NCBI RefSeq assembly: GCF_037902255.1
Contig: NZ_CP147990.1
Span: forward strand, 2,730,001 to 2,762,000
DNA: 32,000 nucleotides
Direction: 5' to 3'
DNA from: Candidatus Electrothrix sp. GW3-4
GTDB lineage: Bacteria > Desulfobacterota > Desulfobulbia > Desulfobulbales > Desulfobulbaceae
The notes beneath the pieces were generated by a model. It made no database searches, was not told the origin of the DNA, and saw nothing but the letters and a program-made list of their open reading frames with translations. Numbering within the stretch: position 1 is the stretch's first letter; the number at the start of each line of letters is the position of its first letter. Of this stretch, positions 1 through 31,273 are shown piece after piece. The position numbers were made by a program, and so were the translations under genes.

Positions 1-126
1 CATCCGCTCCACCCGCCAAAGCGCAGGAGGTGACAGAGCCTCTTCTTTGCGGTATAGTACTCCCTGTACTCCAGCCAGACTCCGCTTGCACTATGCATTT
101 ACTGAACTCTTTCCCCTTTCAATAAG

Positions 127-1071
127 ATGCAAACAAAAACACCTCCCCTCATCCTGGGCTGTTTCCTGAGCTGCTTGATCCTTTTCACGGGGACCGTGCT
201 TCCAGCCCATGCAGAGTCCCTGCCCGTCTTTGTCTCCATTGCCCCGCAAAAATGGCTCGTTGACCAATTAGGCGGTGACCTCGTCAGCGTCCATATCCTG
301 CTGGATAAAGGGCAGGAACCCCATACCTATCAGCCGACCCCGGAAAAGATGACCTTACTCTTTCGCTCCCGCCTCTATTTCACCCTGGGGATGCCATTTG
401 AGCGAGAGATTGCCCGAAAAATAACCCACAAGAAAAACCCTGCCAGAGGGCTTCAGCTCATTGACGTGACAAGGGGCATCAAAAAGATTCCTCTGCTGGC
501 CCATCATCATGGCGATGACCATGAAGAAGATCATGCGGAAGACGATGAAAACGACCATCAGGAAGTTGAGCAGCAGGAATACGCAGATCCACATGTCTGG
601 CTTGACCCGCGCAATGGAAAAAAAATGGCCGCAGCTATAACAGAGGCCCTGATAAGCGCTGCCCCGGAACATGCCCCTGCCTTTCAAGAGAATTTAGCGG
701 TCCTGCAAGAAAGACTCACCCGCCTCCATCAGGAACTTGCACAACAACTTGCCCCATTCCGAGGCACAACCTTTTTTGTTTTTCATCCCTCATTCGGTTA
801 CTTTGCCCATGCCTATGAGCTACACCAAGAGGCTGTGGAGATAGAAGGCAAGGCACCCACACCCAAACAGCTCTACGCCCTTATCAAACAGGCAAGGGCG
901 GATAAGATCAAGGTCCTCTTTGTTCAGCCCCAGTTTGACCGGAGAAGTGCCCAAACTGTGGCTCAGGCGATCAAGGGCAAGCTGGTGGAGCTGGACCCTT
1001 TGGCGGAAGATATCGAACAAAATCTCAAGTCGATGGCCGAGGCCATGCAAACGGCGCTCACACCTCAATAA
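127..1071 (+). CDS. znuA: Zinc ABC transporter periplasmic substrate-binding protein (ZnuA/TroA cluster-9 family)
   Basis: The 314-aa ORF has a signal peptide (...TGTVLPAHA/ES). It carries the acidic His-rich loop HHHGDDHEEDHAEDDENDH (nt 502-558) typical of ZnuA. The matching ABC ATPase and permease genes follow directly. Confidence 0.85.
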   Translation: MQTKTPPLILGCFLSCLILFTGTVLPAHAESLPVFVSIAPQKWLVDQLGGDLVSVHILLDKGQEPHTYQPTPEKMTLLFRSRLYFTLGMPFEREIARKITHKKNPARGLQLIDVTRGIKKIPLLAHHHGDDHEEDHAEDDENDHQEVEQQEYADPHVWLDPRNGKKMAAAITEALISAAPEHAPAFQENLAVLQERLTRLHQELAQQLAPFRGTTFFVFHPSFGYFAHAYELHQEAVEIEGKAPTPKQLYALIKQARADKIKVLFVQPQFDRRSAQTVAQAIKGKLVELDPLAEDIEQNLKSMAEAMQTALTPQ

Positions 1072-1092
1072 CGCGCAAAGCAAGATATCCCT

Positions 1093-1848
1093 ATGACAGA
1101 TGCTGCTATCCAGCTCAGAGACCTCAGTTATTCCTATGATGACATCCCCGTACTCACCGATGTTTGCCTGGATATCTTCCCTGGGGACACAGCCTCTATT
1201 ATTGGACCCAACGGCGGCGGCAAGACCACGTTGATCAAGTTGATCCTCGGCCTGGAGAGCCCGGACAAGGGAACGGTTCTGGTCTATGGAAATAAACCCG
1301 AGCACGAGCGCACCCGCATAGGTTATGTCCCCCAGTACGCCCGCTATGATCCTCATTTTCCTATCTCACTCCTGAACGTGGTATGCATGGGACGGATCGG
1401 CAGTTCCCTCAGTGGCCGTTATACTCGCCATGACAAGGAGATCGCCTTAGAGGCCTTGACTGCCGTCAATCTCGCGGATCTGGCCAAGCGCCCTTTCTCG
1501 GCCCTCTCAGGAGGACAACGACAACGGGTCCTCATCGCCCGGGCCTTGGCTACGGAAAGCGACATCCTCATCCTCGATGAACCCACAGCCAGCCTGGATC
1601 GTCAATCGGAGCAACAACTCTTTGCCCTGCTGGCAAAACTCAACAAAAACATGATTATTCTCATGGTGACCCATGAAATAGGGGTTTCGTCTACATTTTT
1701 CCAGCGGGTGATCTGCGTTAATAATCAGGTCTTTGTTCACCCGACCAGTGAACTGACCGGAGAGCTGCTCCGTGACATGTACGGTGGCGATCTGCGCATG
1801 ATTCGCCATGACCATCGTTGCGGCCCCGGAGGGCACGAACATGACTGA
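1093..1848 (+). CDS. znuC: Zinc ABC transporter ATP-binding protein
   Basis: Walker A GPNGGGKT, ABC signature LSGGQRQR and Walker B ILILDEP are present. The gene starts 21 nt after znuA. Confidence 0.9.
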   Translation: MTDAAIQLRDLSYSYDDIPVLTDVCLDIFPGDTASIIGPNGGGKTTLIKLILGLESPDKGTVLVYGNKPEHERTRIGYVPQYARYDPHFPISLLNVVCMGRIGSSLSGRYTRHDKEIALEALTAVNLADLAKRPFSALSGGQRQRVLIARALATESDILILDEPTASLDRQSEQQLFALLAKLNKNMIILMVTHEIGVSSTFFQRVICVNNQVFVHPTSELTGELLRDMYGGDLRMIRHDHRCGPGGHEHD

Positions 1849-2713
1849 ACTGTGGGCCGCACTCTTTGATCCGGATCTGCCCTTTCTCCGCTATGCCCTG
1901 ATTACCGGTCTACTGGCCTCTCTTTCCTTTGGTATCATCGGCACCTTTGTCGTTGTCCGCCGCATCAGTTATATTGCCGGAGCCATCTCCCATTGTGTTC
2001 TGGCTGGTATCGGGGGCGGCTTATACCTACAAAACGTAGTTGGTATCCCTTGGATCACCCCTGTCCGGGGAGCGGTTATCGTTTCCCTGCTGGCTGCCTT
2101 ACTCCTGGCCCAGGCAAGTAAAAATGCAGGCCAACGGGAAGACTCGGTTATCGGTGCCCTCTGGGCAGGCGGCATGTCCATCGGCTTCCTTTTTATCGCT
2201 GTGACGCCTGGTTATTTTGATCCAATGTCGTACCTCTTTGGCAATATTCTGCTCATCAACAAGGAGGACATCTACTTTGTTATTGCCCTTAACCTTGTTA
2301 TCCTGGCCGTGGTCGGCATCTTTTATAATAAGCTAGTTGCGATCTGTTTTGACGAGGAATATACTCAGCTCAGAGGGGTACATACCCGCTGGCTCTACCT
2401 GCTGCTCCTCTGCCTGACCGCCTTGACCATTGTCCTGCTTGTTCGCATTGTCGGAATTATTATGGTTATCGCTCTCCTCACCCTGCCAGCAGCTATTGCT
2501 GGCAATATGGCCTCAGGTATCCGCCAGATGATGATCCTTGCCACGTTTTTCTCTGCCCTGTTCATTGTCAGTGGACTCGGCGTCAGCTTTTCCTTTAACC
2601 TACCCAGCGGCTCGGTTATTATTCTTATTGCTACGACCTGCTACCTGCTCAGTCTCGGATTCAGTGGAAGGTGGCGGAGAAAACAGAAAAAAACAAGTCA
2701 TTCTATCGAATAG
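1841..2713 (+). CDS. znuB: Zinc ABC transporter permease (ABC-3 family)
   Basis: The protein is polytopic and hydrophobic throughout. The ORF opens at 1808, but the ATG at 1841 (MTELWAALF...) overlaps the znuC stop (ATGACTGA), so I prefer the coupled start. Confidence 0.85.
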   Translation: MTELWAALFDPDLPFLRYALITGLLASLSFGIIGTFVVVRRISYIAGAISHCVLAGIGGGLYLQNVVGIPWITPVRGAVIVSLLAALLLAQASKNAGQREDSVIGALWAGGMSIGFLFIAVTPGYFDPMSYLFGNILLINKEDIYFVIALNLVILAVVGIFYNKLVAICFDEEYTQLRGVHTRWLYLLLLCLTALTIVLLVRIVGIIMVIALLTLPAAIAGNMASGIRQMMILATFFSALFIVSGLGVSFSFNLPSGSVIILIATTCYLLSLGFSGRWRRKQKKTSHSIE

Positions 2714-2829
2714 AGTCAAGAAAAAACTTGAGTATTCCAAAAAATTCTTATACTATCTCAGTAAGAAGAAGAGAAAAACAAGAAAGTAGAATTATATTGC
2801 GAAGATAATCTTCAGGAAGTGGGGGTGTT

Positions 2830-2994
2830 ATGAAAAAGTCAGGACTCTTATTTATTGCATTATCTCTTGCCGCTCTGTTACTGAGCGGATGCTATTATGC
2901 ACCTCCGACATCTCGGACTGTCCATACCTACTCGACATCAACACAAACCGTCCAGACCTCCACCTATTACGGAGATGCATATCCCTACTACTAA
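2830..2994 (+). CDS. Small lipoprotein, 54 aa, Thr/Tyr-rich (hypothetical)
   Basis: Found by hand because it is below the ORF-track cutoff. The sequence is MKKSGLLFIALSLAALLLSGC|YYAPPTSRTVHTYSTSTQTVQTSTYYGDAYPYY. It has lipobox LLSGC and the Shine-Dalgarno-like ggaagtggggg upstream. It shares the motif APTSRTVHTY..TQ.V with the next gene. Confidence 0.5.
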   Translation: MKKSGLLFIALSLAALLLSGCYYAPPTSRTVHTYSTSTQTVQTSTYYGDAYPYY

Positions 2995-3032
2995 CAACGT
3001 AACAACGATAATATTCAGGAGATGAAGAACTC

Positions 3033-3626
3033 ATGAAGATTGTAACATTACTAACACCCGTACTTGCAGCTGGCCTATTGACGGCATGCGGACATTCCAG
3101 CGCTCCGACATCACGAACAGTCCATACCTATACTTCAACAACACAAAGCGTTTCTACCACAACCCATACAGGTAGCAGAGTACGCCGACCGGTACGACGG
3201 ACCTATACACCCGTTGTTCGTTCCTCTCGACCCGTTGTCCGTACCTACTCGCCAGTGGTTCGTAGCTATCGCCCGGTTACCCGGACCTACACCCCGATAG
3301 TGCGTTCCTCGACAAGACGATATGTTTCGCCATCACGCTATGTCAGCACACGGTATCGGTATCCGTCAAATATAACCAGTACCCCTGCGACAAGAATTAC
3401 AGTGCCGTCCATTGTCAGCACACCAACATCACGGTTTACTGTTCCTTCAACAATAACCACACCGGCAACCAGGACCTATACCTCATCAAGAAGCACACCA
3501 AGACCTACGGTTCGCTATCCATCCCGGTATAACAGCAGTTATTACCCTCCGCCAGTACCGAGACCCAAACCGGTCTGTCCGCCGCCGGAACCGCCCTGCT
3601 GCCCCCCTGAACCTTGCTGTCCATAA
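3033..3626 (+). CDS. Highly basic repeat lipoprotein, 197 aa, with a Cys-Pro C-terminal tail (hypothetical)
   Basis: Signal peptide with lipobox LLTAC. The mature part is R/T/S/P/V/Y-rich with no Asp and only two Glu. It contains internal tandem repeats and ends KPVCPPPEPPCCPPEPCCP. Confidence 0.6.
   Translation: MKIVTLLTPVLAAGLLTACGHSSAPTSRTVHTYTSTTQSVSTTTHTGSRVRRPVRRTYTPVVRSSRPVVRTYSPVVRSYRPVTRTYTPIVRSSTRRYVSPSRYVSTRYRYPSNITSTPATRITVPSIVSTPTSRFTVPSTITTPATRTYTSSRSTPRPTVRYPSRYNSSYYPPPVPRPKPVCPPPEPPCCPPEPCCP
3198..3311 (+). repeat. In-frame tandem repeat, 42-bp (14-aa) period, about 2.7 copies
   Basis: The copies encode RTYTPVVRSSRPVV / RTYSPVVRSYRPVT / RTYTPIVRSS. Confidence 0.8.
3378..3488 (+). 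repeat. In-frame tandem repeat, 39-bp (13-aa) period, about 2.8 copies
   Basis: The copies encode STPATRITVPSIV / STPTSRFTVPSTI / TTPATRTYTSS. Confidence 0.7.
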
Positions 3627-3790
3627 TGATAGAGTTCAGCACGACTTTCTCTCTCTTGCGCCTTAGTGCAAGGGGGAGCCGATGAGACATTTGGCAACAC
3701 TTGACGAAGCAAGTCACTGAAATCGATTCTGTAGGCAAAAAAAAATCGGATCTATTTTCTGTCACCCCCAAAAAAAAGAGGTAAAACATC

Positions 3791-4030
3791 ATGAAAAAAC
3801 TCAGCACCTTCCTTTCCCTGGCAATCGCGGCAGTCATCCTCAGCGGCTGCTATGTTTCTCCGTATTATTACGGTGGATACAGAAACGGTTATCAGTGCCC
3901 GCCGCCAATCAAGGTCGACGTGGACATTAAAAAAGAGAAAAAGAAAGATAAAAAGCCCAAGTGCGAACCTGTGTGCGAACCCAGCTGTGACTGTCCACCG
4001 GTTTATAAGCCAGTGTGCCGATACAACTAA
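3791..4030 (+). CDS. Small Cys/Pro/Lys-rich lipoprotein, 79 aa (hypothetical)
   Basis: MKKLSTFLSLAIAAVILSGC|YVSPYYYGG... with lipobox ILSGC. A Lys-rich stretch KKEKKKDKKPK is followed by C-x3-C-x3-C-x-C-x7-C (CEPVCEPSCDCPPVYKPVC). The Shine-Dalgarno-like agagg lies 8 nt upstream. Confidence 0.6.
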   Translation: MKKLSTFLSLAIAAVILSGCYVSPYYYGGYRNGYQCPPPIKVDVDIKKEKKKDKKPKCEPVCEPSCDCPPVYKPVCRYN

Positions 4031-4119
4031 TCGGGACCACAATGGAGCCCCTGCCCTACTGGAGACAAGTCTTCTCAGAAGCAAGGGCTCTTTATTTATT
4101 CAATAATGGATATGATGCC

Positions 4120-4305
4120 ATGAAAAAGATCGCAATATTTCTCACGCTGACAGCAACGGCGTTCCTGCTCGGGGGATGTTATTTTCCACCACCACCTGGT
4201 CCGGGAGGAGTACGCCCAGCAGCAAGAAGACCGTATCGTCATCCTGTTGTGGTACCAGTACCGAGGGTCATTCCTGTTCCGCCACCGGTGTATTATTATC
4301 CATGA
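4120..4305 (+). CDS. Small Pro-rich lipoprotein, 61 aa (hypothetical)
   Basis: An internal ATG of ORF 4015..4305 gives MKKIAIFLTLTATAFLLGGC|YFPPPPGPGGVRPAARRPYRHPVVVPVPRVIPVPPPVYYYP, with lipobox LLGGC. Confidence 0.55.
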   Translation: MKKIAIFLTLTATAFLLGGCYFPPPPGPGGVRPAARRPYRHPVVVPVPRVIPVPPPVYYYP

Positions 4306-4610
4306 AAAATTATCCGGAAAAAGACGCGCCACCTGCCCTTGTGGGGTTGGTGGTGCCTCATCATTACAGACATACACCAAAACTGGAGCCAATGTGCTCC
4401 CAGCCTTTCCTTTCTCTTCTTTTGCTGTTCTGACCAAATTTGCTTCCGACAAAAAGCCGTCCCACCAAAATGTATTACCCCCGTCTTGAACAATAAAACA
4501 CTCCTGCCTATCTCCTGGACAAAAGGTCCTTGCCGCGACTGCATACCCGCGTCGCCCCCCCTTCCCCTTTACGTCCGAACAAAAACGACTATTTTCCGAA
4601 AAAATATTAT

Positions 4611-4640
4611 TTGACTTTTCAAGTTTGAACTGCATAAAAT
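4611..4640 (+). promoter_or_regulatory. Candidate sigma70 promoter for the carbonic-anhydrase-like gene
   Basis: TTGACT (4611-4616), an 18-nt spacer, then TAAAAT (4635-4640), about 90 nt upstream of the ATG at 4730. Confidence 0.35.
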
Positions 4641-4729
4641 AACAATTAAAGATCGACCAGAATATCATAGATTCTGCATGATGTAAAAATGCAACAGACA
4701 CAAATTTTGAGGAAAAAGGAGGAAGACCC

Positions 4730-5572
4730 ATGGATATGAAAAAAACACTACAGGCCTTTATTATTGCATCTTCTGCTCTCGGATTACTTGCCACTGTAGG
4801 CTGTGCAAAAAATGCAGAGCATGGAGAACATACTGCCGGAACAGGGAAGGTATGCGAAGGGTTTGGCCCTCAGACACCAAGGGATATTGACCAAAAAGCT
4901 GGGGAAAATAAGCGAGTCTTTACTCTTGCCCCGGGTTATAAGAACATGAATCTCTGTAATATCCACTTCCATGTCAATGCTGAGCATAAGGCAAAGGACT
5001 TTTCCCTTTATGCTGGTGAAGGTGAGCATGGTCACGGTGGTGGCTACCAATGTAACGACACCAAGAATCTCACCAAGAAAGAACTGTCTCCGGTTGATGT
5101 CAAAGAGGGATGTGAGGGCGTAAAGCCGGGTGATACCATTGAGGTCCATTGGGTCCACAGCTCCTGCGATGTCGCACCGGGCAAGGGGTTAGGTTCCTGT
5201 CTGTCCGAAAGCTGCTCCAACCCGGATCTGCGGGTTGAAACACAGGTCTTCCTGGTCGTTAATGATCCTGAGGCATTAGACTTCGGCGAGATGGCGTATG
5301 ATGGCAACACGGTCAATGGACTGCATCAGGCAAAATCCCTGCCCACAGACACCGGAACGCCGGTTGAATTCCTGGGCTCCACAACAGGACCGAAGTACAC
5401 CCAGGAACAATGTTCTCCCTTTCAGGTCACCTGGAGCGTTCGGCCCCAATGTGCCAAAATCGACATCAGAAGCCTGCATGCCTGGTGTAAGGATAATGTC
5501 TTTGAGGAAGACCATGCCCATGGCGTACGGCAACTCGTTACTGACCCGAACCTCCTCTCTGAGATCAAATAA
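4730..5572 (+). CDS. Cys-rich lipoprotein with an alpha-carbonic-anhydrase-like zinc-ligand motif (putative carbonic anhydrase)
   Basis: Signal peptide with lipobox ATVGC and a strong Shine-Dalgarno sequence aggagg 7 nt upstream. NIHFHVNAEH (H79, H81, E85, H86) and EVHWVH (E138, H140, H143) follow the alpha-CA order HFH..EH..ExHxVH, but with different spacing and a GEGEHGHGGG insert. Confidence 0.45.
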   Translation: MDMKKTLQAFIIASSALGLLATVGCAKNAEHGEHTAGTGKVCEGFGPQTPRDIDQKAGENKRVFTLAPGYKNMNLCNIHFHVNAEHKAKDFSLYAGEGEHGHGGGYQCNDTKNLTKKELSPVDVKEGCEGVKPGDTIEVHWVHSSCDVAPGKGLGSCLSESCSNPDLRVETQVFLVVNDPEALDFGEMAYDGNTVNGLHQAKSLPTDTGTPVEFLGSTTGPKYTQEQCSPFQVTWSVRPQCAKIDIRSLHAWCKDNVFEEDHAHGVRQLVTDPNLLSEIK

Positions 5573-5639
5573 GAGGCCTGAGTAGAACAGGTTATGTGAC
5601 TCCAGCAAGTACAGAGGAACAAAGAAATGCAAGCAGAAA

Positions 5640-5678
5640 GCGGTCCGGGAGAAAATAAATGCCCGGACCGCTTTTTTT
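5640..5678 (+). terminator. Rho-independent terminator between convergent genes
   Basis: A 10-bp stem gcggtccggg / cccggaccgc with a 12-nt loop is followed by TTTTTTT. Confidence 0.7.
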
Positions 5679-5708
5679 ATTTATACCGACAAGAAAAGTC
5701 GGGCCCTT

Positions 5709-7034
5709 TCACCCTATCCTCCGTACCATCTCTCCAATCCGTTTCATCTCTGTTATAATCGCAGTCTCATCCAGGGTCGTCAGCTGCCGATCCCGCATCA
5801 CCACTTTCCCGTTAATAACGGAGTGAATAACATCGCTCCCGCCAGCGGCATAGACCAGATGGGAAAGAGGATTATAGAGCGGGGTAAGATGGGGCTGATC
5901 CATATCCAGCATAATCAGGTCGGCCTTTCTGCCCACGGCAAGACTGCCTATTGCAGCTCCTGCGCCGAGCAAAGCAGCACCACCTTGAGTGGCGGTATGC
6001 AGGGTCGCGGCAGCATTCATCACGGTGGGATCCATCTGGACCACCTTATGCATTTTTGCGGCTGAGTTCATCTCGCCAAACAGATCCAGATCGTTATTGG
6101 AGGCACTGCCATCCGTGCCCAGGCCAACGGTGATCCCTTGCTCCAACAGAGCAGGCACAGGAGCTGCCCCTGATGCCAGCTTCATATTCGATTCTGGACA
6201 ATGGGCTATTTTGACCTTACGTTCTGCCAGTAAAGTCACCTCCTCCTCACTGACCATAACCCCGTGCGCAGCCACAACCCGTTCATTGAGCAGGCCCAGA
6301 TTTTCCAGATGCTGGACCGGCGAACAGCCGTACCGTTCCCTACAGGTCATAACCTCATCCTGATTTTCCGCAAGATGGATATGATACAGGGCATCCTTTT
6401 CCTCTGCCTGCACGGCCAGTCGTTCCAGGAGGGCCGGAGAGCAGGTGTAGACCGAATGGGGATTGACCGTCACCGTGATCAGTTCGCTTGCCCCATAGCG
6501 CTCAAATAACTCCTCGCTATAGAGAAAGCCGTTCTCCAGCTCTCCGTAGTTGGGTGAGGGAAAATCATAGAGGACCTCGCCCAGCCAGGCCCGCATTCCA
6601 GATTCGGCAGTAGCACGGGCCACGTCCTGGGCAAAGAGATACATATCATTAAAGGCAGTGGTGCCGGATCGAATCATCTCGCAGAGGGAGAGCAAGGTAG
6701 AATGATAGACGATCTCCGAGGTCAGCTGAGCCTCTCGGGGAAAGATATGCCCCTGCAGCCACTCCATCAGGGGCAGGTCATCGGCCAGGCCTCGAAAGCA
6801 GGACATGGCCGCATGGGTATGGCTGTTGATCAGGCCAGGCATGATCAGACCGTGGGCGTGGCTGAGGCATTCAGCCTGGGGATATTTCGCCGCCAGATTG
6901 GGGCCGATCTCCGCGATCCGCCCTTTGGCAACAGCAATGGAGATGTTTTCCTGTTCTGTCACGTCTTGGCTGTTGACCACCAGATAGCGACCGGAAAGGA
7001 TCAAATCAACCTCTGGTCTTTTATCCTGACGCAT
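5709..7034 (-). CDS. mtaD: 5-methylthioadenosine/S-adenosylhomocysteine deaminase (amidohydrolase superfamily)
   Basis: The 441-aa product carries PGLINSHTHAAMSCFRGLADDLPLMEWL, the HxH metal motif and DDLPLMEWL block characteristic of MtaD. Further His and Asp ligands lie downstream (HLAE, GTDG). Confidence 0.85.
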   Translation of the reverse strand: MRQDKRPEVDLILSGRYLVVNSQDVTEQENISIAVAKGRIAEIGPNLAAKYPQAECLSHAHGLIMPGLINSHTHAAMSCFRGLADDLPLMEWLQGHIFPREAQLTSEIVYHSTLLSLCEMIRSGTTAFNDMYLFAQDVARATAESGMRAWLGEVLYDFPSPNYGELENGFLYSEELFERYGASELITVTVNPHSVYTCSPALLERLAVQAEEKDALYHIHLAENQDEVMTCRERYGCSPVQHLENLGLLNERVVAAHGVMVSEEEVTLLAERKVKIAHCPESNMKLASGAAPVPALLEQGITVGLGTDGSASNNDLDLFGEMNSAAKMHKVVQMDPTVMNAAATLHTATQGGAALLGAGAAIGSLAVGRKADLIMLDMDQPHLTPLYNPLSHLVYAAGGSDVIHSVINGKVVMRDRQLTTLDETAIITEMKRIGEMVRRIG

Positions 7035-7036
7035 AA

Positions 7037-7873
7037 TTACAGCTCCTGTACGATTTCAAGGATCATTTCTTGCAGCTTGGGTTCGGCCTGCATAGCGGCC
7101 TCAACGATATCTTCCAACAGAATAGGGATGAAATCATCCGGGTCATTGACATTGGCCACCACGGATAGGCCCAGGACCTGCAGCCCGGCATGCAGGGCCG
7201 TGATGATCTCTGGCACAGAGGACATGCCCAAGGCATCGGCCCCCCATTGCCGAAACATCCGGGTCTCTGCCGGGGTCTCCAGACTGGGGCCCGGGATACA
7301 GATATAGGTTCCTTCTTTTAGCTCGGTAAATCCCAGCCTACGGGCGGCCTGTCGCGCCAATTTACGTAAGGCCGGGGCATAGGGCTGAGAAAAATCTGGG
7401 AAACGGGGGCCCCAGGCATCAATATTGGGGCCGCGCAGGGGATTATCCGGCAGCTGATTGATATGATCCTTGAAGACCATAATGGTCCCGGCCTGCCAAG
7501 CCGTGTTCAGGCCACCCGAGGCATTGGTGATGATGGCGGTCCGTACCCCGAGCAGGGCCAAGACCCGGACCGGGAAGCCGACTTCCCGGGCAGAATAGCC
7601 CTCATAATAATGGAAGCGTCCCTGGAGGATGGCACAGGGCCTGCCAGCCAGGGTACCGTAGACCAGATTACCGGCATGGCTGGTCACCGTGGAGCGGGGA
7701 AAGCCGGGGATCTCCTCATAAGGGATAGAGATGCTGTTGTCCATGGCCTCGACCAGATTGCCCAGACCAGTGCCCAGCTGAATCAAGACCTCGGGCATGG
7801 TCGGGAGACGGGAACGAAGAAAGGCCACAGCGCGTTCTACCTGCTCTTTATGTGTATCGCGGCTCTCCATCAT
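7037..7873 (-). CDS. Purine nucleoside phosphorylase, trimeric PNP/MTAP family (PunA-like; possible methylthioinosine phosphorylase)
   Basis: The 278-aa product has GRFHYYEGY and ITNASGGLN blocks typical of inosine/guanosine PNP. Its stop lies 2 nt before the mtaD start. Confidence 0.85.
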   Translation of the reverse strand: MMESRDTHKEQVERAVAFLRSRLPTMPEVLIQLGTGLGNLVEAMDNSISIPYEEIPGFPRSTVTSHAGNLVYGTLAGRPCAILQGRFHYYEGYSAREVGFPVRVLALLGVRTAIITNASGGLNTAWQAGTIMVFKDHINQLPDNPLRGPNIDAWGPRFPDFSQPYAPALRKLARQAARRLGFTELKEGTYICIPGPSLETPAETRMFRQWGADALGMSSVPEIITALHAGLQVLGLSVVANVNDPDDFIPILLEDIVEAAMQAEPKLQEMILEIVQEL

Positions 7874-8301
7874 AGCCTATCTTCGCTCCTGAGTAGCACA
7901 TATTGGCAGGCCTCTGCAAGCCGGGCAGCAACATACTGAACCCGGTTTTGCTCCCAGCTCTCCAGATCAAAGCAAATGGCGTCCTCACCGAGCAGACCGC
8001 CAGGGACGGCATCGCCCTGCCCTTCCGGGTCGCTAATCATGTCGGCATAAAAACAGACCGAAAGCCAACGTGGGCTGTCCTCAATCACGTCGATCATGGC
8101 CAAGAGCTCCCGGCTTGTCTGGGCCTTATGCGCTGCGCGCAGGGAATAGGTGACCCCAGGACGGGGGATGAATTGCAGCTGAATAGCCTCATCCCGTTCC
8201 AGCTGCCCTTTATAGCTGAGAAAGATCTCTTTGATTCTCTCCGGGCCCTCCTGCCAGTCGGCAAGAAAGGCCTTCAGGTCTACGTCCGTTGCTTGGCTCA
8301 T
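7870..8301 (-). CDS. Hypothetical protein (144 aa from ATG 8301), translationally coupled to PNP
   Basis: The ORF is open to 8415, but the ATG at 8301 has agagaggaag 5 nt upstream. Its stop overlaps the PNP ATG (ATGA). I recognise no motif. Confidence 0.5.
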   Translation of the reverse strand: MSQATDVDLKAFLADWQEGPERIKEIFLSYKGQLERDEAIQLQFIPRPGVTYSLRAAHKAQTSRELLAMIDVIEDSPRWLSVCFYADMISDPEGQGDAVPGGLLGEDAICFDLESWEQNRVQYVAARLAEACQYVLLRSEDRL

Positions 8302-19029: not shown

Positions 19030-20145
19030 TTAGAAGCGGAAACGCAGTCCTACACCAAAGCGTCCATACTCAGACAGCTTGTCGGTCTCATCAATCCCTG
19101 AACGTGCTTCAAAGAAAAGTGAGGTATTAAAGCCATCTGGATGACCAAAGATCTGGGCACCAATCTGGGCAATAATGTCAATATCACTGTCTTCAGACTC
19201 AATATCGTCGTCACCATCAGACATCCAGCCACCGAGACCAAATCCCAAGAAAACTGGATTCCACACATCACCTACACGCAGAAAGAACAGGTTATACTGA
19301 AGCATGAAGTCAACTAACCAGGCATCGTCACCATCGTTACCATCAGCCTTTGTCGCTCCACCGATCATACCTAGGAAAGAAAGACGCTGGTTAAACGCAT
19401 ACTCTGCACCGATTCTGCCGAAGCCGTAATCAGCCGGATCAGACAGGCGCAGATACCCCATATCCGCAACGAAGCGAAGCGGATACACACAAGGAGGACA
19501 GCATTGCGGTGGCGCTTCAACAAACTTTTCTACAATTTTTTCTACCGGCACCTCAACTCTTTTCTCAACAATCTTCTCAACAATCTGAGGTGGTCCAGGG
19601 ACAATCTTCTCAACAATCTGAGGTGGTCCGGGGACAATCTTCTCAACAATTTGAGGCGGCCCGGGGACAGTTTTCACAACAATACGTACAACCTCTTTCA
19701 GAGACAGGTTACCACAGAAGAGAGGAACGGAAAAAACGTAGCGATTTTCACCAGCATCAATGAAAAACTCATAGCCGCTTAATGCTGCCTTACCTCCCCA
19801 AGTGATCTCCTTGGCAACTTTAACCGGACCAACGCCACTCGGTCTGAACAACATCCAGTCAAAAGTTGCGCCGGGCTGATATTCAACATTTTGAATCTGC
19901 GCCTGCGAAAACTGTTGCATGAGCGGTGTATACAACTCAGGCATACCGGCTTTCTGCAGTCCTTCCATGATAGCAGTCTGTTGAGTCGTCATCATGGTTT
20001 TGAGATCATCCACTGATTTGAGGGGGGGCTTATAAAATGGATGACGCCCGATGACTGTCAGCGTACTCGCAGCTTGTACGGTACCTACTGACAACAATAA
20101 CAAAATAGTTACCTGTGCCAAAAATTTCAGTTTCACTGTTTTCAT
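19030..20145 (-). CDS. Chimeric outer-membrane protein: N-terminal globular domain, Pro-rich repeat spacer, CCPPC, small C-terminal beta-barrel
   Basis: Signal peptide MKTVKLKFLAQVTILLLLSVGTVQA/AS. Repeats (IVPGPPQIVEK)x3 are followed by EK/VE-rich repeats. The C-terminal ~150 aa have alternating beta-strand patterns and end GLRFRF. The start is ATG 20145 or GTG 20154. Confidence 0.65.
   Translation of the reverse strand: MKTVKLKFLAQVTILLLLSVGTVQAASTLTVIGRHPFYKPPLKSVDDLKTMMTTQQTAIMEGLQKAGMPELYTPLMQQFSQAQIQNVEYQPGATFDWMLFRPSGVGPVKVAKEITWGGKAALSGYEFFIDAGENRYVFSVPLFCGNLSLKEVVRIVVKTVPGPPQIVEKIVPGPPQIVEKIVPGPPQIVEKIVEKRVEVPVEKIVEKFVEAPPQCCPPCVYPLRFVADMGYLRLSDPADYGFGRIGAEYAFNQRLSFLGMIGGATKADGNDGDDAWLVDFMLQYNLFFLRVGDVWNPVFLGFGLGGWMSDGDDDIESEDSDIDIIAQIGAQIFGHPDGFNTSLFFEARSGIDETDKLSEYGRFGVGLRFRF
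19568..19666 (-). repeat. Three tandem 33-bp repeats (near-perfect) inside the OMP gene
   Basis: The units are 19568-19600, 19601-19633 and 19634-19666. Units 1 and 2 differ at 1 nt, and units 2 and 3 at 3 nt. Each encodes IVPGPPQIVEK. Confidence 0.9.
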
Positions 20146-20416
20146 CCTCCTCACATTCCCTGTTTTGTAACAACAATAAAATTAGGCCTGCCTACTTTCA
20201 CCACAAGAATAAAATATATACCCTTGCCTTTTTTCCGTTTTCCGTCGGATATTCCCCCGAAATCCGACAAAAAAAGAAAAGTCGTCTAACACGAGTAAGG
20301 ATACTCTATCGCACGACTTGTTACAACCGATGATTGCATACGTTATATTTTTTTTACGCGTTCTGACAAAGCAAGTCAGAAAGTAGCATTATCTGTACAA
20401 GCGGGCAATACAACAA

Positions 20417-21097
20417 TCAAAATTTATAGCTAAGAGAAAGAGATACAACAGGATAGTACTCGTATTCATCAATCTCTTTTTCTATTTCCTGTCGCTCCTG
20501 CTCAATAAAGGCCTCGGCAACTGGATGGTTACCAAGTCCCCAAGGATCCTCAACATGTAACTCCGTGACCCGTGGTGAGCCCTGAAACATAATTCCCAGA
20601 TCTATATTCACCCCCCAGCGGCTCATGGATTCATGATTACTTGTCCAGCCGATACCAAGGTAAGGGGCAAAGGTGTCAAACTCAACCAACCCGACCACAT
20701 GGGCCTGATCAATCAGGTCAGCGTAGCGAGCAAGCTCCGGGGACAGCAGATCCTTTCGGTAGGTGCCGTCAATATCTATTTCATTATTATTAAGATAGGC
20801 GCCTAGAGTAAAACGAAAGGCATTAGCAAAGGGGTGGAGATCAAGAAGCAATGAACTCGTGGAAAAATCCGGGGCAAAATTATAATCAATATCTGAGATC
20901 GTGGTATCAAAATCAAAACTGATCTGGTTCACACCCGCACGGATCTCCAGATAAGGATTCATATCTAGGCTGACCTCTACCCCGCCTCCGAGGGTTCCTG
21001 CCTTGATACCTAGGCCAATCTGACCGGATTCTGCATACGCAGGAGAGTTGATTGCCAACAGAGAACCTGCGGCAAGAAAAACATACACTTTTTTCAT
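20417..21097 (-). CDS. Outer-membrane beta-barrel protein (small porin/OmpW-like class, family not identified)
   Basis: Signal peptide MKKVYVFLAAGSLLAINSPAYA/ES, alternating hydrophobic beta-strands, and the C-terminus SLSLSYKF. The Shine-Dalgarno sequence aagga lies 6 nt upstream of the ATG at 21097. Confidence 0.7.
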   Translation of the reverse strand: MKKVYVFLAAGSLLAINSPAYAESGQIGLGIKAGTLGGGVEVSLDMNPYLEIRAGVNQISFDFDTTISDIDYNFAPDFSTSSLLLDLHPFANAFRFTLGAYLNNNEIDIDGTYRKDLLSPELARYADLIDQAHVVGLVEFDTFAPYLGIGWTSNHESMSRWGVNIDLGIMFQGSPRVTELHVEDPWGLGNHPVAEAFIEQERQEIEKEIDEYEYYPVVSLSLSYKF

Positions 21098-21195
21098 AGT
21101 TATTCCTTTTGGGCAACCAGCAAACAAGACAGCTGCCACCCTATTATTTCTTCTTTTGTACCATTGAAAGGAGCCGATCTATTGCGGGGGCAGTC

Positions 21196-22629
21196 TCACT
21201 CTGGCTCTTCTCCCACCAGTAACTCAACAACCTCTATTTTTTCCTTTGCCCCTTCTGCTAAATCCAATACCGGAACGCTCCCCTGTTTCACTTCCACACC
21301 TCTCTCATCATGGGTGATGCGGACCTTGGGTTTATCAATCTCCTTCCCGGAGGCAACAACCGTTGCCATGCAGCCGTTATTTAACCGAACCTGACTCCCT
21401 GGCGGATAGATACCAAGTGCGGTGATGAAAGCTACAAGCAATGCAGGATCAAAGGCGCCCTTATCATTGATCATAATACCGAATGCCGCTAAGGGGGTAA
21501 TCGATGGTTTATAGGGCCGAACCGCTGTTAAGGCCTCAAAGACATCACAGATCTGGAGCAGGCTGTTGAAATGACTGCGCACGACCCAAGAGGGGGGCGA
21601 AGGATAACCACCTCTGTCGTGGCGAATATGATGTCCCCAAGCCGCCGCAATCTGCATTGGCGTCGACTCCCTATGGTTAAGCAAGATTTCTGCTCCGAAT
21701 TCAGGATGTGAGCGCATAAGGGCAAACTCTTCATCATTCAGCTTGCCTCGCTTATAAATAATCTCCGACGGTATTCTTCCTTTTCCAACATCATGAAGAA
21801 GGGCCGCAGTCCCGAGATCAACAAGTTGGTCCTTGTCCACTCCCAGTGTGTCGGCCACAAAAACTGCTAAGGTAGCAACCCTGACAGAATGTCCCACGGT
21901 ATAGCTGTCATGATCAGGATAGTGGACGAATTGCAAAATATCAGCAAAATCAGAACCTGCACTCTCCAAAAGATGCTCGCTGATCGTTTGCGCTCCGTTG
22001 ATATCCAAAGGACGCTGGAGGCTGACATCACAGAATGATTTTGCCACAATATCATAGAGGGCTTGATAAACAAGGAGGGGCGAATGGCGTTCATCAGAAC
22101 CACCGTTTTCATGCTGGCAATCCTGATCCTCAGAGCTTGAACTCGGCTGAACGCAATGCGCCTCCAGTTGGATATTTTCGACCTGATGCAATTGCAGAAA
22201 TTCTTCAGCTTCCTGAATATTGTTGACCGAATGCGTCAGATGATCCGTCAAATCAAGGAGCCGCTGAACCTCCGGGACACTGACCCCTGGAGTGAACACA
22301 AAGCCAGAGCAATGAAGCAACTGGGCAAACTCAACTAATTGCAGCCCCATAATACTGGGGCCGAAAAGATAATGCCCTTCATACACTAACTTATTATCAG
22401 CTATACCAATACATAACTTATTCTTTTCAGTTGCAACAAAAAAATCCTGGAGGTCGTTTATAAAAAACTGACAGCTCTCTTTTATTATGGGGTGCTCTGA
22501 AAAATAAATCTTACGTTGCCCAATGCTTTTACATAACAACACAATAATCTTATTCAGTTTCACATCCATAAATTGAGTCCCAGAGGATCCTTGGTTCGTT
22601 TGCTCTTGCGTCAACGTGCTCTGATTCAT
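21196..22629 (-). CDS. HD-GYP domain protein (putative c-di-GMP phosphodiesterase) with an uncharacterised N-terminal module
   Basis: HSVRVATLAV...LLHDVGKGRIP...HPEFGAEIL...HHIRHDRGGYP gives the HD and GYP signatures. I chose the ATG at 22629; a GTG at 22650 is also possible. Confidence 0.85.
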   Translation of the reverse strand: MNQSTLTQEQTNQGSSGTQFMDVKLNKIIVLLCKSIGQRKIYFSEHPIIKESCQFFINDLQDFFVATEKNKLCIGIADNKLVYEGHYLFGPSIMGLQLVEFAQLLHCSGFVFTPGVSVPEVQRLLDLTDHLTHSVNNIQEAEEFLQLHQVENIQLEAHCVQPSSSSEDQDCQHENGGSDERHSPLLVYQALYDIVAKSFCDVSLQRPLDINGAQTISEHLLESAGSDFADILQFVHYPDHDSYTVGHSVRVATLAVFVADTLGVDKDQLVDLGTAALLHDVGKGRIPSEIIYKRGKLNDEEFALMRSHPEFGAEILLNHRESTPMQIAAAWGHHIRHDRGGYPSPPSWVVRSHFNSLLQICDVFEALTAVRPYKPSITPLAAFGIMINDKGAFDPALLVAFITALGIYPPGSQVRLNNGCMATVVASGKEIDKPKVRITHDERGVEVKQGSVPVLDLAEGAKEKIEVVELLVGEEPE

Positions 22630-22662
22630 CAGATAGCCCCAGACAAGCACCGACCTGAAATC

Positions 22663-24609
22663 TTAATATTTTTCCAATGCCTTCAGAGCAGCGAGACGGG
22701 CGGGCTTGGGCCATTTCGCAAGCAACAGAAATTGTTTATCCCGTGCTATTTCAACAAGCAGGGAATACGCTGTCAGGAGAGGAATCCTGGACAATGCGCT
22801 AATACTCTCGGCAATCCATTGCTCCTTTCTCTGCTCAAGGGAGAGTTCGGGCAATCTTTCCACAATAATTGCAGCGCCCTCTTTTTTCAAATCCGGGCTG
22901 GGATTAGCAGGATTGTCCTGCTGAAAGAGTTTGATAATAAACTGCTGATCCGCCTCTGAACGACTGTCAAGAAGAGGGCGCACCGCCCTGTCCAACCAGC
23001 CCAAAGGTTGTTCCCTCAGTCCGTCAATGAGTTTTTGACAAAAATATGCTGCCTGTGATGACTCAAGCAGGATCCTGAAAAGAAAAGACAAAGCTGGAGG
23101 ATGCGACAAAAAGATATCTGCCGCTATCTTCCTTTCTGTCAAGGCATCAAGTCTCTTAAGACAAGGGGTTGCAGCCTGCATCCCCTGTTCAGACAAACTT
23201 CCTGCAACCGTGCAGAGTTCCTGAAAGACCTCAGGTTCTTTCTGCTTCCCTTCAAGCAGGAGTTCATTGACCAGAAAAGGCCAGAACGCAATGAACTCAT
23301 GAGCATTCAGTTGTTGACAGATATCTCGAACAAAAACCAGGGAAGACGTACGGGGCGATGAGCGGAAGGTCTGAAGAAGAAGAACAAGGATAAGGTGCAG
23401 ACGTTCCCCATCCAGGGTTTTGAAGAGCTGGTGGGCTCCCTGAATCAGTATCTGCCACTCCTCCTGTTCCAACACGGTGTCAAAATACCCGGTCAATGCC
23501 TCCTGTATGTTCAAAAGGATTTGGCTCTGGAGAGGCCGACCTAGGGTCACCATGAAGACAGATAACTGTTCACTGCGAGTATTTTGAAAAAACGGTCCAG
23601 TAAAGCTCCTCCCTTCCAGGGCCAGGAGCTCCTTTTTTAACTCCCCAATGGTGATATCGGTTCTGTCATGAGGACGTAAGCTTTTTTTCCCTTCCTGAAC
23701 CTCGTCCTCAGCTTCAGGCACAGGCCCCTTTGTTATATCAATCAAGAGATTGACCGCCTTTTTAACGGCCTGCTTGGATTGAGTATCCGCATTGGGATCG
23801 TCAAGAGCGGTTAAGATAGCCAAAAGCCCATCAATATTATAGCGTTCTTCTAGGGGCTGAGCAGAATCCTTCTGAAAAGATGATTGAATAAACTCAACAA
23901 GACCGAACAATAATTTTTCGACATCTTCCCATGTGACAGAGGCAAGACCGGAATTATTGAGTTGTCTTTTTTCAAGACGCCCCTTAACTGACTGTAATAA
24001 TTCGCGGCAGATAGAAACCATTTCCTCTGGAACACCGCGATCCATCAAGGAAGAGAGAAGGTATTCAAGCGTTGGCTGGGCAGTACCCTTGGGTGCCTCA
24101 TCGACGTTGACACCCGTTTCGGAGGTAAATTTGAGCTGCCGGACGTTGACGGTTTGTGGTAAGCCCGTGATGATCATTCTTGAAAAATCACGACTGCTCC
24201 GAACCTTGCTGTTTTGCCCAATGATTTCGCCAAAAAATTGGCGGGCCTCATCGGCATTGATATCACGATGGATGTCAAGCGAGGTTATATGCAGCGCAGA
24301 AAACATCTCATAAAATATTTTTACAGCTGGCTGCTTCCTGTCGAGCTCATTTTTTTGCAACGACAGGGTCTGTCCTGTCACGGAAAAATGAACACAACCT
24401 GTTTTTTTATCGGCAGTCCCTTCAACAATGTCTAAAAAAGCATCTATTGCCCTATCAGCCACATTATGACCTATCGGATAGTATAAACCGATATTATACA
24501 CCCGTTGCATCGCGTTCATCAACTCGTAATAACATTGAGGAACGTCAAGTTGCGGTTCAATTTTCCATGTAGTCTTCTGTGGCGAATCCATACGCGTCAA
24601 GCCGCTCAT
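22663..24609 (-). CDS. Hypothetical 648-aa soluble, probably all-alpha protein
   Basis: A long ORF with no TM segment and no catalytic motif I recognise. By eye, the N-terminal ~130 aa resemble the N-terminal module of the downstream HD-GYP protein. Confidence 0.6.
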   Translation of the reverse strand: MSGLTRMDSPQKTTWKIEPQLDVPQCYYELMNAMQRVYNIGLYYPIGHNVADRAIDAFLDIVEGTADKKTGCVHFSVTGQTLSLQKNELDRKQPAVKIFYEMFSALHITSLDIHRDINADEARQFFGEIIGQNSKVRSSRDFSRMIITGLPQTVNVRQLKFTSETGVNVDEAPKGTAQPTLEYLLSSLMDRGVPEEMVSICRELLQSVKGRLEKRQLNNSGLASVTWEDVEKLLFGLVEFIQSSFQKDSAQPLEERYNIDGLLAILTALDDPNADTQSKQAVKKAVNLLIDITKGPVPEAEDEVQEGKKSLRPHDRTDITIGELKKELLALEGRSFTGPFFQNTRSEQLSVFMVTLGRPLQSQILLNIQEALTGYFDTVLEQEEWQILIQGAHQLFKTLDGERLHLILVLLLQTFRSSPRTSSLVFVRDICQQLNAHEFIAFWPFLVNELLLEGKQKEPEVFQELCTVAGSLSEQGMQAATPCLKRLDALTERKIAADIFLSHPPALSFLFRILLESSQAAYFCQKLIDGLREQPLGWLDRAVRPLLDSRSEADQQFIIKLFQQDNPANPSPDLKKEGAAIIVERLPELSLEQRKEQWIAESISALSRIPLLTAYSLLVEIARDKQFLLLAKWPKPARLAALKALEKY

Positions 24610-25584: not shown

Positions 25585-26055
25585 TCAGCTAAAACTGGCC
25601 ACCAACATAATAAAGACCAAAACCGCCGCACCCGCTGAGACCCCTGCCCCGATATACTGCCAGGACAGAGCCACCACCGTAGTAATAATACTGCCAATAC
25701 AGATTTCTTTCCCGTGTTCTTTATCCAAAGAATAAATAGCTGCTCCGATAGCCGCTATAGCAAGCAATACCATCGCAGCTGTAAAAAAAACAGAGAGTCG
25801 TTGCAGACTCTTGATTTTTCGTTCACTCTCGGAAAATTTTATTAATATATTCTTCGCCTCAGGATCTTTCAAGGGGGCAAATTTTATATTCACCCCTTCA
25901 ATTTCCAAAGATACTGCCGCGTGATCGACCCGCCCCTCTGTTTCTATTTCTTTAATTTTCTGCGTTATCATACAGGAAGGAAGAATGGCAAGCATCAGAG
26001 AAAGACAGGATAACAACAGAGACAGAACACCGATTCGATACCTTGTCTGTTTCAT
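25585..26055 (-). CDS. Hypothetical membrane protein (156 aa)
   Basis: An N-terminal hydrophobic/lipobox-like segment (LLLSC) is followed by a soluble stretch of about 55 aa and three C-terminal TM segments. The gaps to both neighbours are short (6 nt to thiL, 12 nt to the ARH ATG). Confidence 0.5.
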   Translation of the reverse strand: MKQTRYRIGVLSLLLSCLSLMLAILPSCMITQKIKEIETEGRVDHAAVSLEIEGVNIKFAPLKDPEAKNILIKFSESERKIKSLQRLSVFFTAAMVLLAIAAIGAAIYSLDKEHGKEICIGSIITTVVALSWQYIGAGVSAGAAVLVFIMLVASFS

Positions 26056-30812: not shown

Positions 30813-31273
30813 GTGTTTTTTTATTGATACATCACGTCGAATGCCAGCAGCAGGCACAATGCCATCTCCAGACATCCACCTGCTGCCGCCTTGTACCGGC
30901 ACGATTTTTTATAGAGGACAGTATACTCCCCGCTCCTGCGGAAGCGACAGAAAATACTAAAAAACAGCATCATAGACAGAATCACCCTTCCCCTGGTACT
31001 GTCTGGAACAATATCCTGCTTTTTCGATGTTCCGGGCCTCCCTCACCAGGGAGGCTGTGCCGTGGAATATACAGTTAGAAGATAGGGTATAGTTTTAGCA
31101 AGGTTTTTTCAACAATAAAATACCGTTGAGAAAAAACCAGGAGGTAGCCCAGCTCTCTCCATCGAACTGAAGTTCAGTAACATACTGAAAAACACGACGA
31201 GAACAGCGCGGCGTGAGTTTTGCACTGCTTTTTTGCAACAAACCGCCTTGGAAAACCTGAAAAAGTGGCACCC

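Follow-up and report, generated by a model that had tools for sequence, protein, structure and literature searches.

A conserved array of four low-complexity lipoprotein genes beside znuABC in marine cable bacteria, and its possible role as an envelope matrix or spacer

What are the four very small open reading frames (ORFs) that follow the zinc-importer genes znuABC in Candidatus Electrothrix sp. GW3-4, a marine cable bacterium whose 4.64-Mb genome is closed, and what could their products do? The stretch of DNA that we analysed, referred to here as the window, comprises 32,000 nt of that genome (contig NZ_CP147990.1, positions 2,730,001 to 2,762,000 of the forward strand). An earlier note, made from the letters of the window alone, had described four same-strand ORFs as an array of tiny lipoprotein genes and had suggested a metal-buffering or structural-matrix role for their products. 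Our comparison with related loci identifies the array as four real protein-coding genes under purifying selection, restricted to the genus Candidatus Electrothrix, marine cable bacteria. As to function, we favour, with a probability of roughly 0.4, a physical role: the array proteins would be extended chains, tethered to the membrane, that make up or space a layer of the envelope and are held together by Tyr/Arg contacts and disulfides. The coordinates of all four ORFs were borne out, and are as follows.

ORF1 (WGN25_12135): 2830..2994, + strand; 54-amino-acid (aa) precursor with a mature part of 33 aa, YYAPPTSRTVHTYSTSTQTVQTSTYYGDAYPYY
ORF2: 3033..3626, + strand; 197-aa precursor made up of an N-module, six heptads, a core and a Cys-Pro tail
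ORF3 (WGN25_12145): 3791..4030, + strand; 79-aa precursor with 24 invariant columns across 21 orthologs
ORF4 (WGN25_12150): 4120..4305, + strand; 61-aa precursor with a mature part of 41 aa

Each of the four begins, as had been observed earlier, with MK(K/I), continues with a hydrophobic stretch and reaches a lipobox ending in the lipid Cys (LLSGC, LLTAC, ILSGC and LLGGC for ORF1 to ORF4). The signals up to that Cys read MKKSGLLFIALSLAALLLSG in ORF1, MKIVTLLTPVLAAGLLTA in ORF2, MKKLSTFLSLAIAAVILSG in ORF3 and MKKIAIFLTLTATAFLLGG in ORF4. All four are lipoprotein signals by the definition that we applied, namely a positively charged N-region, a hydrophobic stretch and a lipobox of the form [LVI][ASTVI][GAS]C at about residues 15-25, and the Pfam model LPAM_1 gave weak matches in some array proteins. 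When the 32-kb window was scanned for lipobox ORFs with a regular expression, six matches were returned, all on the + strand and all within 127-5572; 200 Markov shuffles yielded a mean of 0.05 lipobox ORFs, and three clustered were never seen. Because each precursor carries a signal-peptidase-II-type signal together with a lipobox, we expect lipid-anchored products on the periplasmic face of the envelope.

The mature parts, 33, 178, 59 and 41 aa long after the Cys (ORF1 to ORF4), are built mainly of Thr, Ser, Pro, Tyr, Arg and Val, with Lys and Cys added in ORF3, and the composition entropy of the array proteins is 2.6-3.4 bits. Tyr directly follows the lipid Cys in ORF1, ORF3 and ORF4, and Cys-Pro clusters stand at the ends of two members, ORF2 and ORF3; in all of these respects the first description of the sequence holds. 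ORF1 is 24% Tyr and 24% Thr. The mature part of ORF2, with an isoelectric point of 11.2 and a net charge of +25, contains 18% Thr, 18% Pro, 16% Ser, 15% Arg and 8% Tyr, and its parts are ordered as an N-module common with ORF1, the heptads, a T/P/S-rich core (about residues 113-150) and the tail CPPPEPPCCPPEPCCP. ORF3 (Pro 17%, Lys 17%, Tyr 13%, Cys 12%) runs from an N-terminal CYVSPY through an invariant CPPP, a Lys/Glu-rich middle and (C-K/E-P-x)n repeats to a final Y. ORF4 is 36% Pro and 19% Val, and lacks acidic residues.

Sequences of such low complexity invite the suspicion that they are chance ORFs in a spacer, or orphan genes in decay. Two of the four were indeed passed over by the gene caller in Logan assemblies (ORF2 was predicted by gene callers in two of these), and the E. 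gigas AU1_5 assembly has a disrupted ORF1. The suspicion can be weighed against loci collected around ZnuB relatives from 22 genomes and around homologs on assembled contigs and in metagenomes. The Electrothrix loci that cover the array are the window, L001-L009, L020, L022 and L025-L030, with E. laxa (L003), E. aarhusensis, E. marina, E. gigas (L008, the AU1_5 assembly) and strain YB6 among the species; the metagenome scan added just four loci, in which the gene order is unchanged. The four ORFs follow one another in an identical order in each Electrothrix locus spanning the region, immediately 3′ of znuB where the znuB end is present. The earlier note had counted frames that fail to stay open in relatives against its idea. 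The frames are open across 17 Electrothrix loci, the window counted among them, ORF1 of E. gigas excepted, and remain so although ZnuB identity to the window drops to about 80%.

Whole-gene ratios of non-synonymous to synonymous substitution (dN/dS, Nei-Gojobori) have medians of 0.17-0.24 (0.23 for ORF2 and 0.22 for ORF4). For the mature parts alone the ratio is 0.16-0.24 (0.19 for ORF1), compared with 0.06-0.09 for znuB in the same genome pairs, and selection therefore acts on the low-complexity mature sequence too, not on the signal peptides alone. The ortholog alignments contain conserved motifs that exceed mere compositional likeness: CYYAPPTSRTV.TYSTST in ORF1; a near-invariant core, TTPATRITVPS..STPTSRF.VPSTITTPATR, and the tail Y(C)PPP.P...CPPEPCCP in ORF2; a terminal C..P.C.Y in ORF3; and CYFPPPP, YRHPVxVPAPRV and PPVYYY(R) in ORF4. 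The lipobox Cys is kept in the orthologs, as LSGC/LGGC/L[ST]AC, apart from ORF1 of E. gigas. With dN/dS near 0.2 in all four ORFs, frames that stay open across the divergence sampled, conserved lipoboxes and Shine-Dalgarno regions, and a chance expectation of 0.05 lipobox ORFs per window, an origin by chance or decay is scarcely credible, and the conservation analysis effectively refutes it.

Some details of annotation belong here. NCBI annotates ORF1, ORF3 and ORF4 as "hypothetical protein", ORF1 among them even though it lay below the ORF cutoff of the first reading. In the E. gigas AU1_5 assembly (L008, 10961-11160) the start of ORF1 lies out of frame and His stands in place of the lipobox Cys (LSGHYY), which could be real gene decay or a single-filament assembly error. 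A 232-aa antisense ORF (window 4096-4794, - strand) overlaps ORF4 and the spacer beyond it; one automatic gene caller gave a 190-aa version in L002, which is absent from the calls for the near-identical L001. This ORF is probably spurious because ORF4 is conserved on the + strand.

The array has neighbours on both sides, and these bear on what it is for.

znuA: 127-1071, + strand; Pfam ZnuA, with a His/Asp/Glu-rich loop
znuC: 1093-1848, + strand; Pfam ABC_tran
znuB: 1808/1841-2713, + strand; Pfam ABC-3
Delta-carbonic anhydrase gene: 4730-5572, + strand; PF10563 (E 1e-77), lipoprotein-type

The gene that follows the array was correctly recognized as encoding yet another lipoprotein-type product, the delta-carbonic anhydrase. 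The earlier proposal that the array sits between a zinc importer and a zinc enzyme stands for the importer, whose linkage is conserved, and falls for the enzyme, whose linkage is not. In L006, L025 and L026 the carbonic anhydrase is not in the array neighbourhood and other genes are there; L025 and L026 keep the link between znuABC and the array though both outer flanks are entirely different (a VTT-domain protein gene upstream of znuA, and an APH-family kinase and a radical S-adenosylmethionine (SAM) methyltransferase downstream of ORF4). As the carbonic anhydrase link varies and the znuABC link is kept, the conserved unit consists of znuABC and the four lipoprotein genes. In the Electronema loci (L010, L011) and those of other Desulfobulbaceae (L012-L019, L021), unrelated genes follow znuABC and no similar ORFs were found. 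Beyond this comparison, ORF2, ORF3 and ORF4 served as queries in a word-indexed search of 5.8 billion protein clusters, and ORF3 in a HMMER profile search of 1.84 billion protein representatives. The only genuine matches of these searches were orthologs, encoded either in named Electrothrix genomes or on contigs that show the same order of genes; a repeat protein, P0041, was a spurious match, and no second GW3-4 copy of ORF2, ORF3 or ORF4 appeared among the matches.

The radical-SAM methyltransferase near the array in L025 and L026 draws attention to another idea, that the products are released or modified peptides (signalling, bacteriocin-like or resembling ribosomally synthesized and post-translationally modified peptides) and not retained lipoproteins. 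The products are small, and the ORF3 signal weakly matches the NCBIfam Phr N-terminal model (E 6.5e-4, below the cutoff). We consider export of this kind very improbable: the lipobox Cys is conserved in nearly all orthologs, the radical-SAM gene is not kept as a neighbour elsewhere, and no transporter, protease or immunity gene accompanies the array.

How such an array arose can be partly read from internal repeats.

Module, ORF1 copy: 2903..2967, + strand; PPTSRTVHTYSTSTQTVQTSTY
Module, ORF2 copy: 3103..3167, + strand; APTSRTVHTYTSTTQSVSTTTH
Tandem repeats in ORF2: 3186..3310, + strand; 21-nt period encoding the heptad P-V-V-R-T/S-Y-S/T

The two modules form a 65-nt direct repeat with 75% identity (2903-2967 versus 3103-3167) that starts at residue 24 in both proteins, as the earlier note had seen. 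Its further claim, that the array grew by local duplication, is borne out in so far as ORF1 carries a copy of the N-module of ORF2, and is not demonstrated beyond this pair. The signal-peptide DNA of ORF3 and ORF4 is 62% identical, and paralogy of these two was rejected on finding 61% identity between ORF1 and the unrelated carbonic anhydrase signal; since the signals of the four are no more alike than they are like that one, only the ORF1/ORF2 duplication is demonstrated. By inspection, the ORF2 tail (Y-C-P-P-P-L-P-K...C-P-P-E-P-C-C-P) and ORF3 (Y-Q-C-P-P-P-I-K...C-K-P-x-C) share a motif, which suggests that ORF3 may derive from the C-terminal module of ORF2.

ORF2 has also changed in length. 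GW3-4 has six exact-register heptads, and copy number varies between species, so that complete ORF2 proteins measure 197, 209, 221, 237, 244, 245, 259, 282, 292, 332/333, 348 and 354 aa; the longest, that of E. gigas (L008), exceeds 397 aa and is broken off by a contig end. This variation is purely through repeat number, and both ends of the protein are conserved. It brings to mind a periplasmic ruler or tether, with ORF2 as an extensible lipid-anchored spacer, the shorter members as its partners, and heptad number setting an envelope distance much as Lpp length sets the width of the enterobacterial periplasm. The shortest ORF2 (197 aa) does occur in the thin filaments of GW3-4, which are 0.4-0.5 µm across (PMC11247825), and the longest (>397 aa, at a contig end) in E. 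gigas, at more than 2.5 µm (PMC10580974). These are just two extreme data points, a disordered chain would make a poor rigid ruler, and drift in repeat number is expected of any tandem repeat; we judge a ruler quite improbable.

Do the proteins fold, or belong to a family whose function is known? The possibility of membership in a characterized family, which would have counted against the earlier view of the array, found no support: Pfam and NCBIfam scans of the four window ORFs and 33 orthologs, and profile searches of the PDB, gave no family for any of the four, with nothing significant in the PDB. NCBIfam matches to LptM, Phr, EexN and others were all far below cutoffs and lay mostly in the signal peptide; the LptM model NF047847 scored 12.6-14.7 bits against a cutoff of 27.7 and aligned to residues 1-21, the signal peptide, alone. 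For the mature parts mostly disorder is predicted, as had been proposed, with a mean AlphaFold confidence (predicted local distance difference test, pLDDT) of 51.0 for ORF3 on a 21-sequence alignment and of 47.7 for ORF2 on a shallow alignment of 4 sequences. ORF3 shows no secondary structure beyond the signal helix. In ORF2 a weak beta-meander (pLDDT about 55) spans residues 113-150, coinciding with the most conserved segment, and the Cys-Pro tail reaches pLDDT 66-71. Apart from that weak beta region, the array proteins combine low complexity with no predicted stable fold.

Cys number is not fixed either. Orthologs of ORF3 have 4-7 Cys, as C-K/E-P-x units are gained and lost, and those of ORF2 have 3-5, without fixed parity. 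This argues against a single intramolecular disulfide fold, and such a fold was rejected for ORF3. The variable count would fit cross-links between molecules or thiol-metal chemistry, and the second of these leads to a zinc accessory. In the periplasm of a sulfide-exposed host, Zn(II) or some other thiophilic metal would be captured or buffered by the lipid-anchored peptides, above all by the Cys-Pro tails of ORF2 and ORF3, and handed on to ZnuA; the array would then belong to a zinc-responsive regulon. The array does lie 3′ of znuB in all Electrothrix loci that have the znuB end, even where both flanks have changed, and its products would occupy the same periplasm as ZnuA. Conserved terminal Cys positions, the C-x3-C spacing of the 4-7 Cys in ORF3 and the CPPEPCCP end of ORF2 point in the same direction. 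The long His/Asp/Glu-rich loop of ZnuA (HHHGDDHEEDHAEDDENDHQEVEQQEYADPH, about residues 116-150) is typical of zinc-specific cluster A-I binding proteins and is likewise in keeping with a zinc accessory. (Gene calling in L001 and L002 produced two alternative starts for ZnuA, with lengths of 298 or 314 aa.) Against it, the lipid Cys is the only Cys in ORF1 and ORF4, which have a single His each and one (ORF1) or no (ORF4) acidic residues; a Pro stands between each Cys pair, unlike in known bacterial metallothioneins; no metal-binding family of Pfam or NCBIfam was matched, and no ligand pattern is common to all four proteins. Sister taxa, moreover, have znuABC without the array.

The regulatory sequences around the array bear on the same question.

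Promoter-like block upstream of ORF1: 2721..2757, + strand; from a nine-locus alignment, with putative function
ORF2 translation-initiation region: 3016..3035, + strand; CAGGAGATGAAGAACTCATG, nearly identical in seven loci
Hairpin after the ORF2 stop: 3650..3677, + strand; 12 bp, -26.7 kcal/mol, z -3.4
Hairpin after ORF3: 4044..4101, + strand; stem GGAGCCC/GGGCUCU with a U-rich tail, intrinsic-terminator-like
Hairpin after the ORF4 stop: 4323..4359, + strand; within a 118-nt segment that folds at -36 kcal/mol, z -3.1

In the 117-nt gap 3′ of znuB, the promoter-like block (AAAAAACTTGAGTATT...TATACTATC) is nearly invariant in the nine loci aligned, with AAAAAACTTGAGTATT itself invariant and TATAC conserved. 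It consists of an A-tract, TTGAGT (2728-2733), a 17-nt spacer and TACTAT (2751-2756); a leader rich in purines and a conserved Shine-Dalgarno region, AGGAAGYGGGG, come next. The ORF1-ORF2 spacer is divergent outside CAGGAGATGAAGAACTCATG in the seven loci compared. A hairpin similar to that at 3650-3677, which may be a transcript 3′ end or a stability element, also occurs in L003, L005 and L022; the stem of the ORF3 hairpin, GGAGCCC/GGGCTCC in its conserved form, is retained in six of eight loci, its z of just -1.1 being weak alone. A simple promoter and terminator scan flagged neither the conserved block nor the long-loop hairpins. With its conserved promoter-like block, Shine-Dalgarno regions and hairpins between genes, the array looks like a transcription unit of its own, with internal processing or attenuation points.

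The conserved block has no recognisable motif in common with the znuA upstream regions, which are not alignable between species. The window holds no match at up to 3 mismatches to the Zur pattern TGTTATAWTATAACA, a gamma-proteobacterial-type pattern that may not be the host's. Both observations, and the fact that the array has a promoter-like block of its own, weigh against a zinc accessory, which is in our view a real possibility but a doubtful one. AT-rich GAATGATA and ATGATAT strings reminiscent of Fur/Zur-type boxes do stand just upstream of znuA in L003, L005, L006 and L007; the window's znuA promoter region (GTGACA-N17-TATAGT, 30-58) is without them. A motif common to the ORF1 and carbonic anhydrase promoters, AAACTTGA/TCAAGTTT, was rejected, as it is not conserved in other species. 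Rfam gave no match in window positions 1-8000, and an RNA-element reading was dropped on that result.

We thus return to a matrix or spacer as the role that we favour. In this model, products lipid-anchored on the periplasmic side, largely unstructured, basic, and rich in Tyr, Pro, Arg, Ser and Thr, would fill or space the periplasm in a physical, not an enzymatic, mode. The chains would associate by Tyr/Arg contacts and by intermolecular disulfides, and the result would be a matrix or spacer layer of the envelope found in marine cable bacteria alone. The steps that we infer are lipidation, cellular location, disorder in the living cell, cross-linking and the matrix or zinc role. Three observations recommend a physical role: a material is a better match than a binding site for the composition and for the variation in repeat number and Cys number; two members (ORF1 and ORF4) are essentially without metal-ligand residues; and the array is preceded by a promoter-like block of its own. 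That the array stays joined to znuABC so persistently suggests a possible link between the layer and periplasmic zinc handling.

A more ambitious form of the model, which we think rather improbable, has marine cable bacteria building a new kind of bacterial envelope matrix, a lipid-anchored layer in the periplasm, from four Tyr/Arg/Pro-rich disordered polypeptides with thiol caps. The ORF2 repeat number would tune its thickness to cell or envelope size, and the Cys-Pro tails would either cross-link this layer or hold a thiophilic metal near ZnuA.

Several points weigh against a matrix or spacer. The matrix role is argued from composition alone, and the AlphaFold disorder calls are weak on shallow alignments. 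Electronema has the same envelope architecture and no detectable homolog after znuB, so the array is not core envelope or conduction machinery. Its co-location with znuABC may perhaps just mark the birthplace of the array. The promoter-like block scores below the threshold of a simple promoter scan. Searches of literature and supplements for the array genes, their locus tags and Electrothrix expression data found nothing, including transcript, peptide, lipidation or localisation data; the expression data located are from Electronema, which is without the array. The GW3-4 genome paper is silent on the array genes (PMC11247825).

The rest of the locus and of the window adds a number of observations outside this argument. 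The delta-class ('cadmium-type') carbonic anhydrase has the lipobox LATVGC and a well-conserved promoter (4611-4640, + strand; TTGACT-N18-TAAAAT), and its conserved 5′ leader holds an inverted repeat (4658-4676, CAGAATATCATAGATTCTG) that is a possible regulator site. E. laxa (L003, 12711-16114) has about 3.4 kb extra between ORF4 and the carbonic anhydrase gene relative to the window. Beyond the carbonic anhydrase, on the opposite strand, lie an amidohydrolase gene and a gene of the purine-nucleoside-phosphorylase family, and the remainder of the window is taken up by housekeeping and signalling genes unrelated to the array. ORFs of 374, 240 and 648 aa (19030-20154, 20417-21139 and 22663-24609, all on the - strand), with no Pfam family at E<=1e-5, adjoin HD-domain genes at 21196-22650 and 29604-30902. 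A 156-aa ORF at 25585-26055 (- strand), flagged by a first lipobox scan, matches no Pfam family and begins with a signal-like segment that ends in LLLSC.

Several known systems resemble the array in part. LptM/YifL, the RcsF N-terminal linker and Lpp share with it a signal-peptidase-II-type signal and a lipobox, and small outer-membrane lipoproteins with disordered regions share a very small mature part, a predicted unstructured tether and physical contact in the periplasm. The array proteins have no sequence relationship to LptM/YifL, RcsF or Lpp, and differ from them in mature proteins that are wholly low-complexity and Tyr/Pro/Arg-rich, encoded by four genes in one genus. PXPV-repeat lipoproteins (PF12778) are found in Burkholderia and relatives. 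Like these, ORF4 is small, with a mature part rich in Pro, Val, Tyr and Arg and P-x-P-V-like strings (PVVVPVPRVIPVPPPVYYY); the resemblance is compositional only, as none of 12 ORF4-family members matches PF12778 at E<=10 and none of the four window ORFs does so at E<=1.

Bacterial metallothioneins of the SmtA/BmtA type are small and Cys-rich, which is a likeness to the array, whose genes adjoin metal-transport genes. The Cys of the array are set apart by Pro-containing tetrapeptides, (C-K/E-P-x)n, and are not conserved in number, and ORF1 and ORF4 do not share the likeness, being essentially without ligand residues. ZinT and AztD, which have folded periplasmic domains with His-based sites, are encoded beside a zinc ABC importer; the array likewise encodes predicted periplasmic proteins in such a position, but its four ORFs match no such family. 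Further afield, the proline-rich cell-wall proteins or extensins of plants contain PPVYK repeats, and mussel foot proteins are rich in Tyr, Lys and Cys. Both recall the array in their short tandem repeats rich in Tyr, Pro, Lys and Arg, their extracytoplasmic location and their potential for Tyr/Cys cross-linking, and CPPVYKPVC in ORF3 recalls the PPVYK and PVYKP strings of plant proline-rich proteins. Their origin is unrelated, the array proteins are tiny and lipid-anchored in prediction, and no Tyr cross-linking or hydroxylation machinery was identified beside the array. Small envelope lipoproteins with disordered parts are therefore known, whilst the array variant is not described in the family libraries or the literature searched. 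Its distinguishing features are mature domains that are all low-complexity and Tyr/Pro/Arg-rich, Cys-Pro caps, a variable heptad member, a four-gene array fixed to znuABC and restriction to marine cable bacteria.

If neither a matrix nor a zinc role holds, the array is an ordinary orphan lipoprotein set. Whatever its role, it is a clean example of how new genes form by module duplication and repeat expansion beside a housekeeping operon. Were the zinc link real, it would represent a new accessory type for zinc ABC importers in sulfidic habitats. If the more ambitious form of the matrix model is right, the proteins would amount to a tethered, possibly gel- or condensate-like polypeptide brush in an organism with conductive fibres in its periplasm. 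Cable bacteria conduct over centimetres in that compartment, and most of its structural proteins are still unidentified. Conserved, selected and made up solely of low-complexity lipoproteins, the array is a concrete candidate for a lineage-specific component of their envelope.

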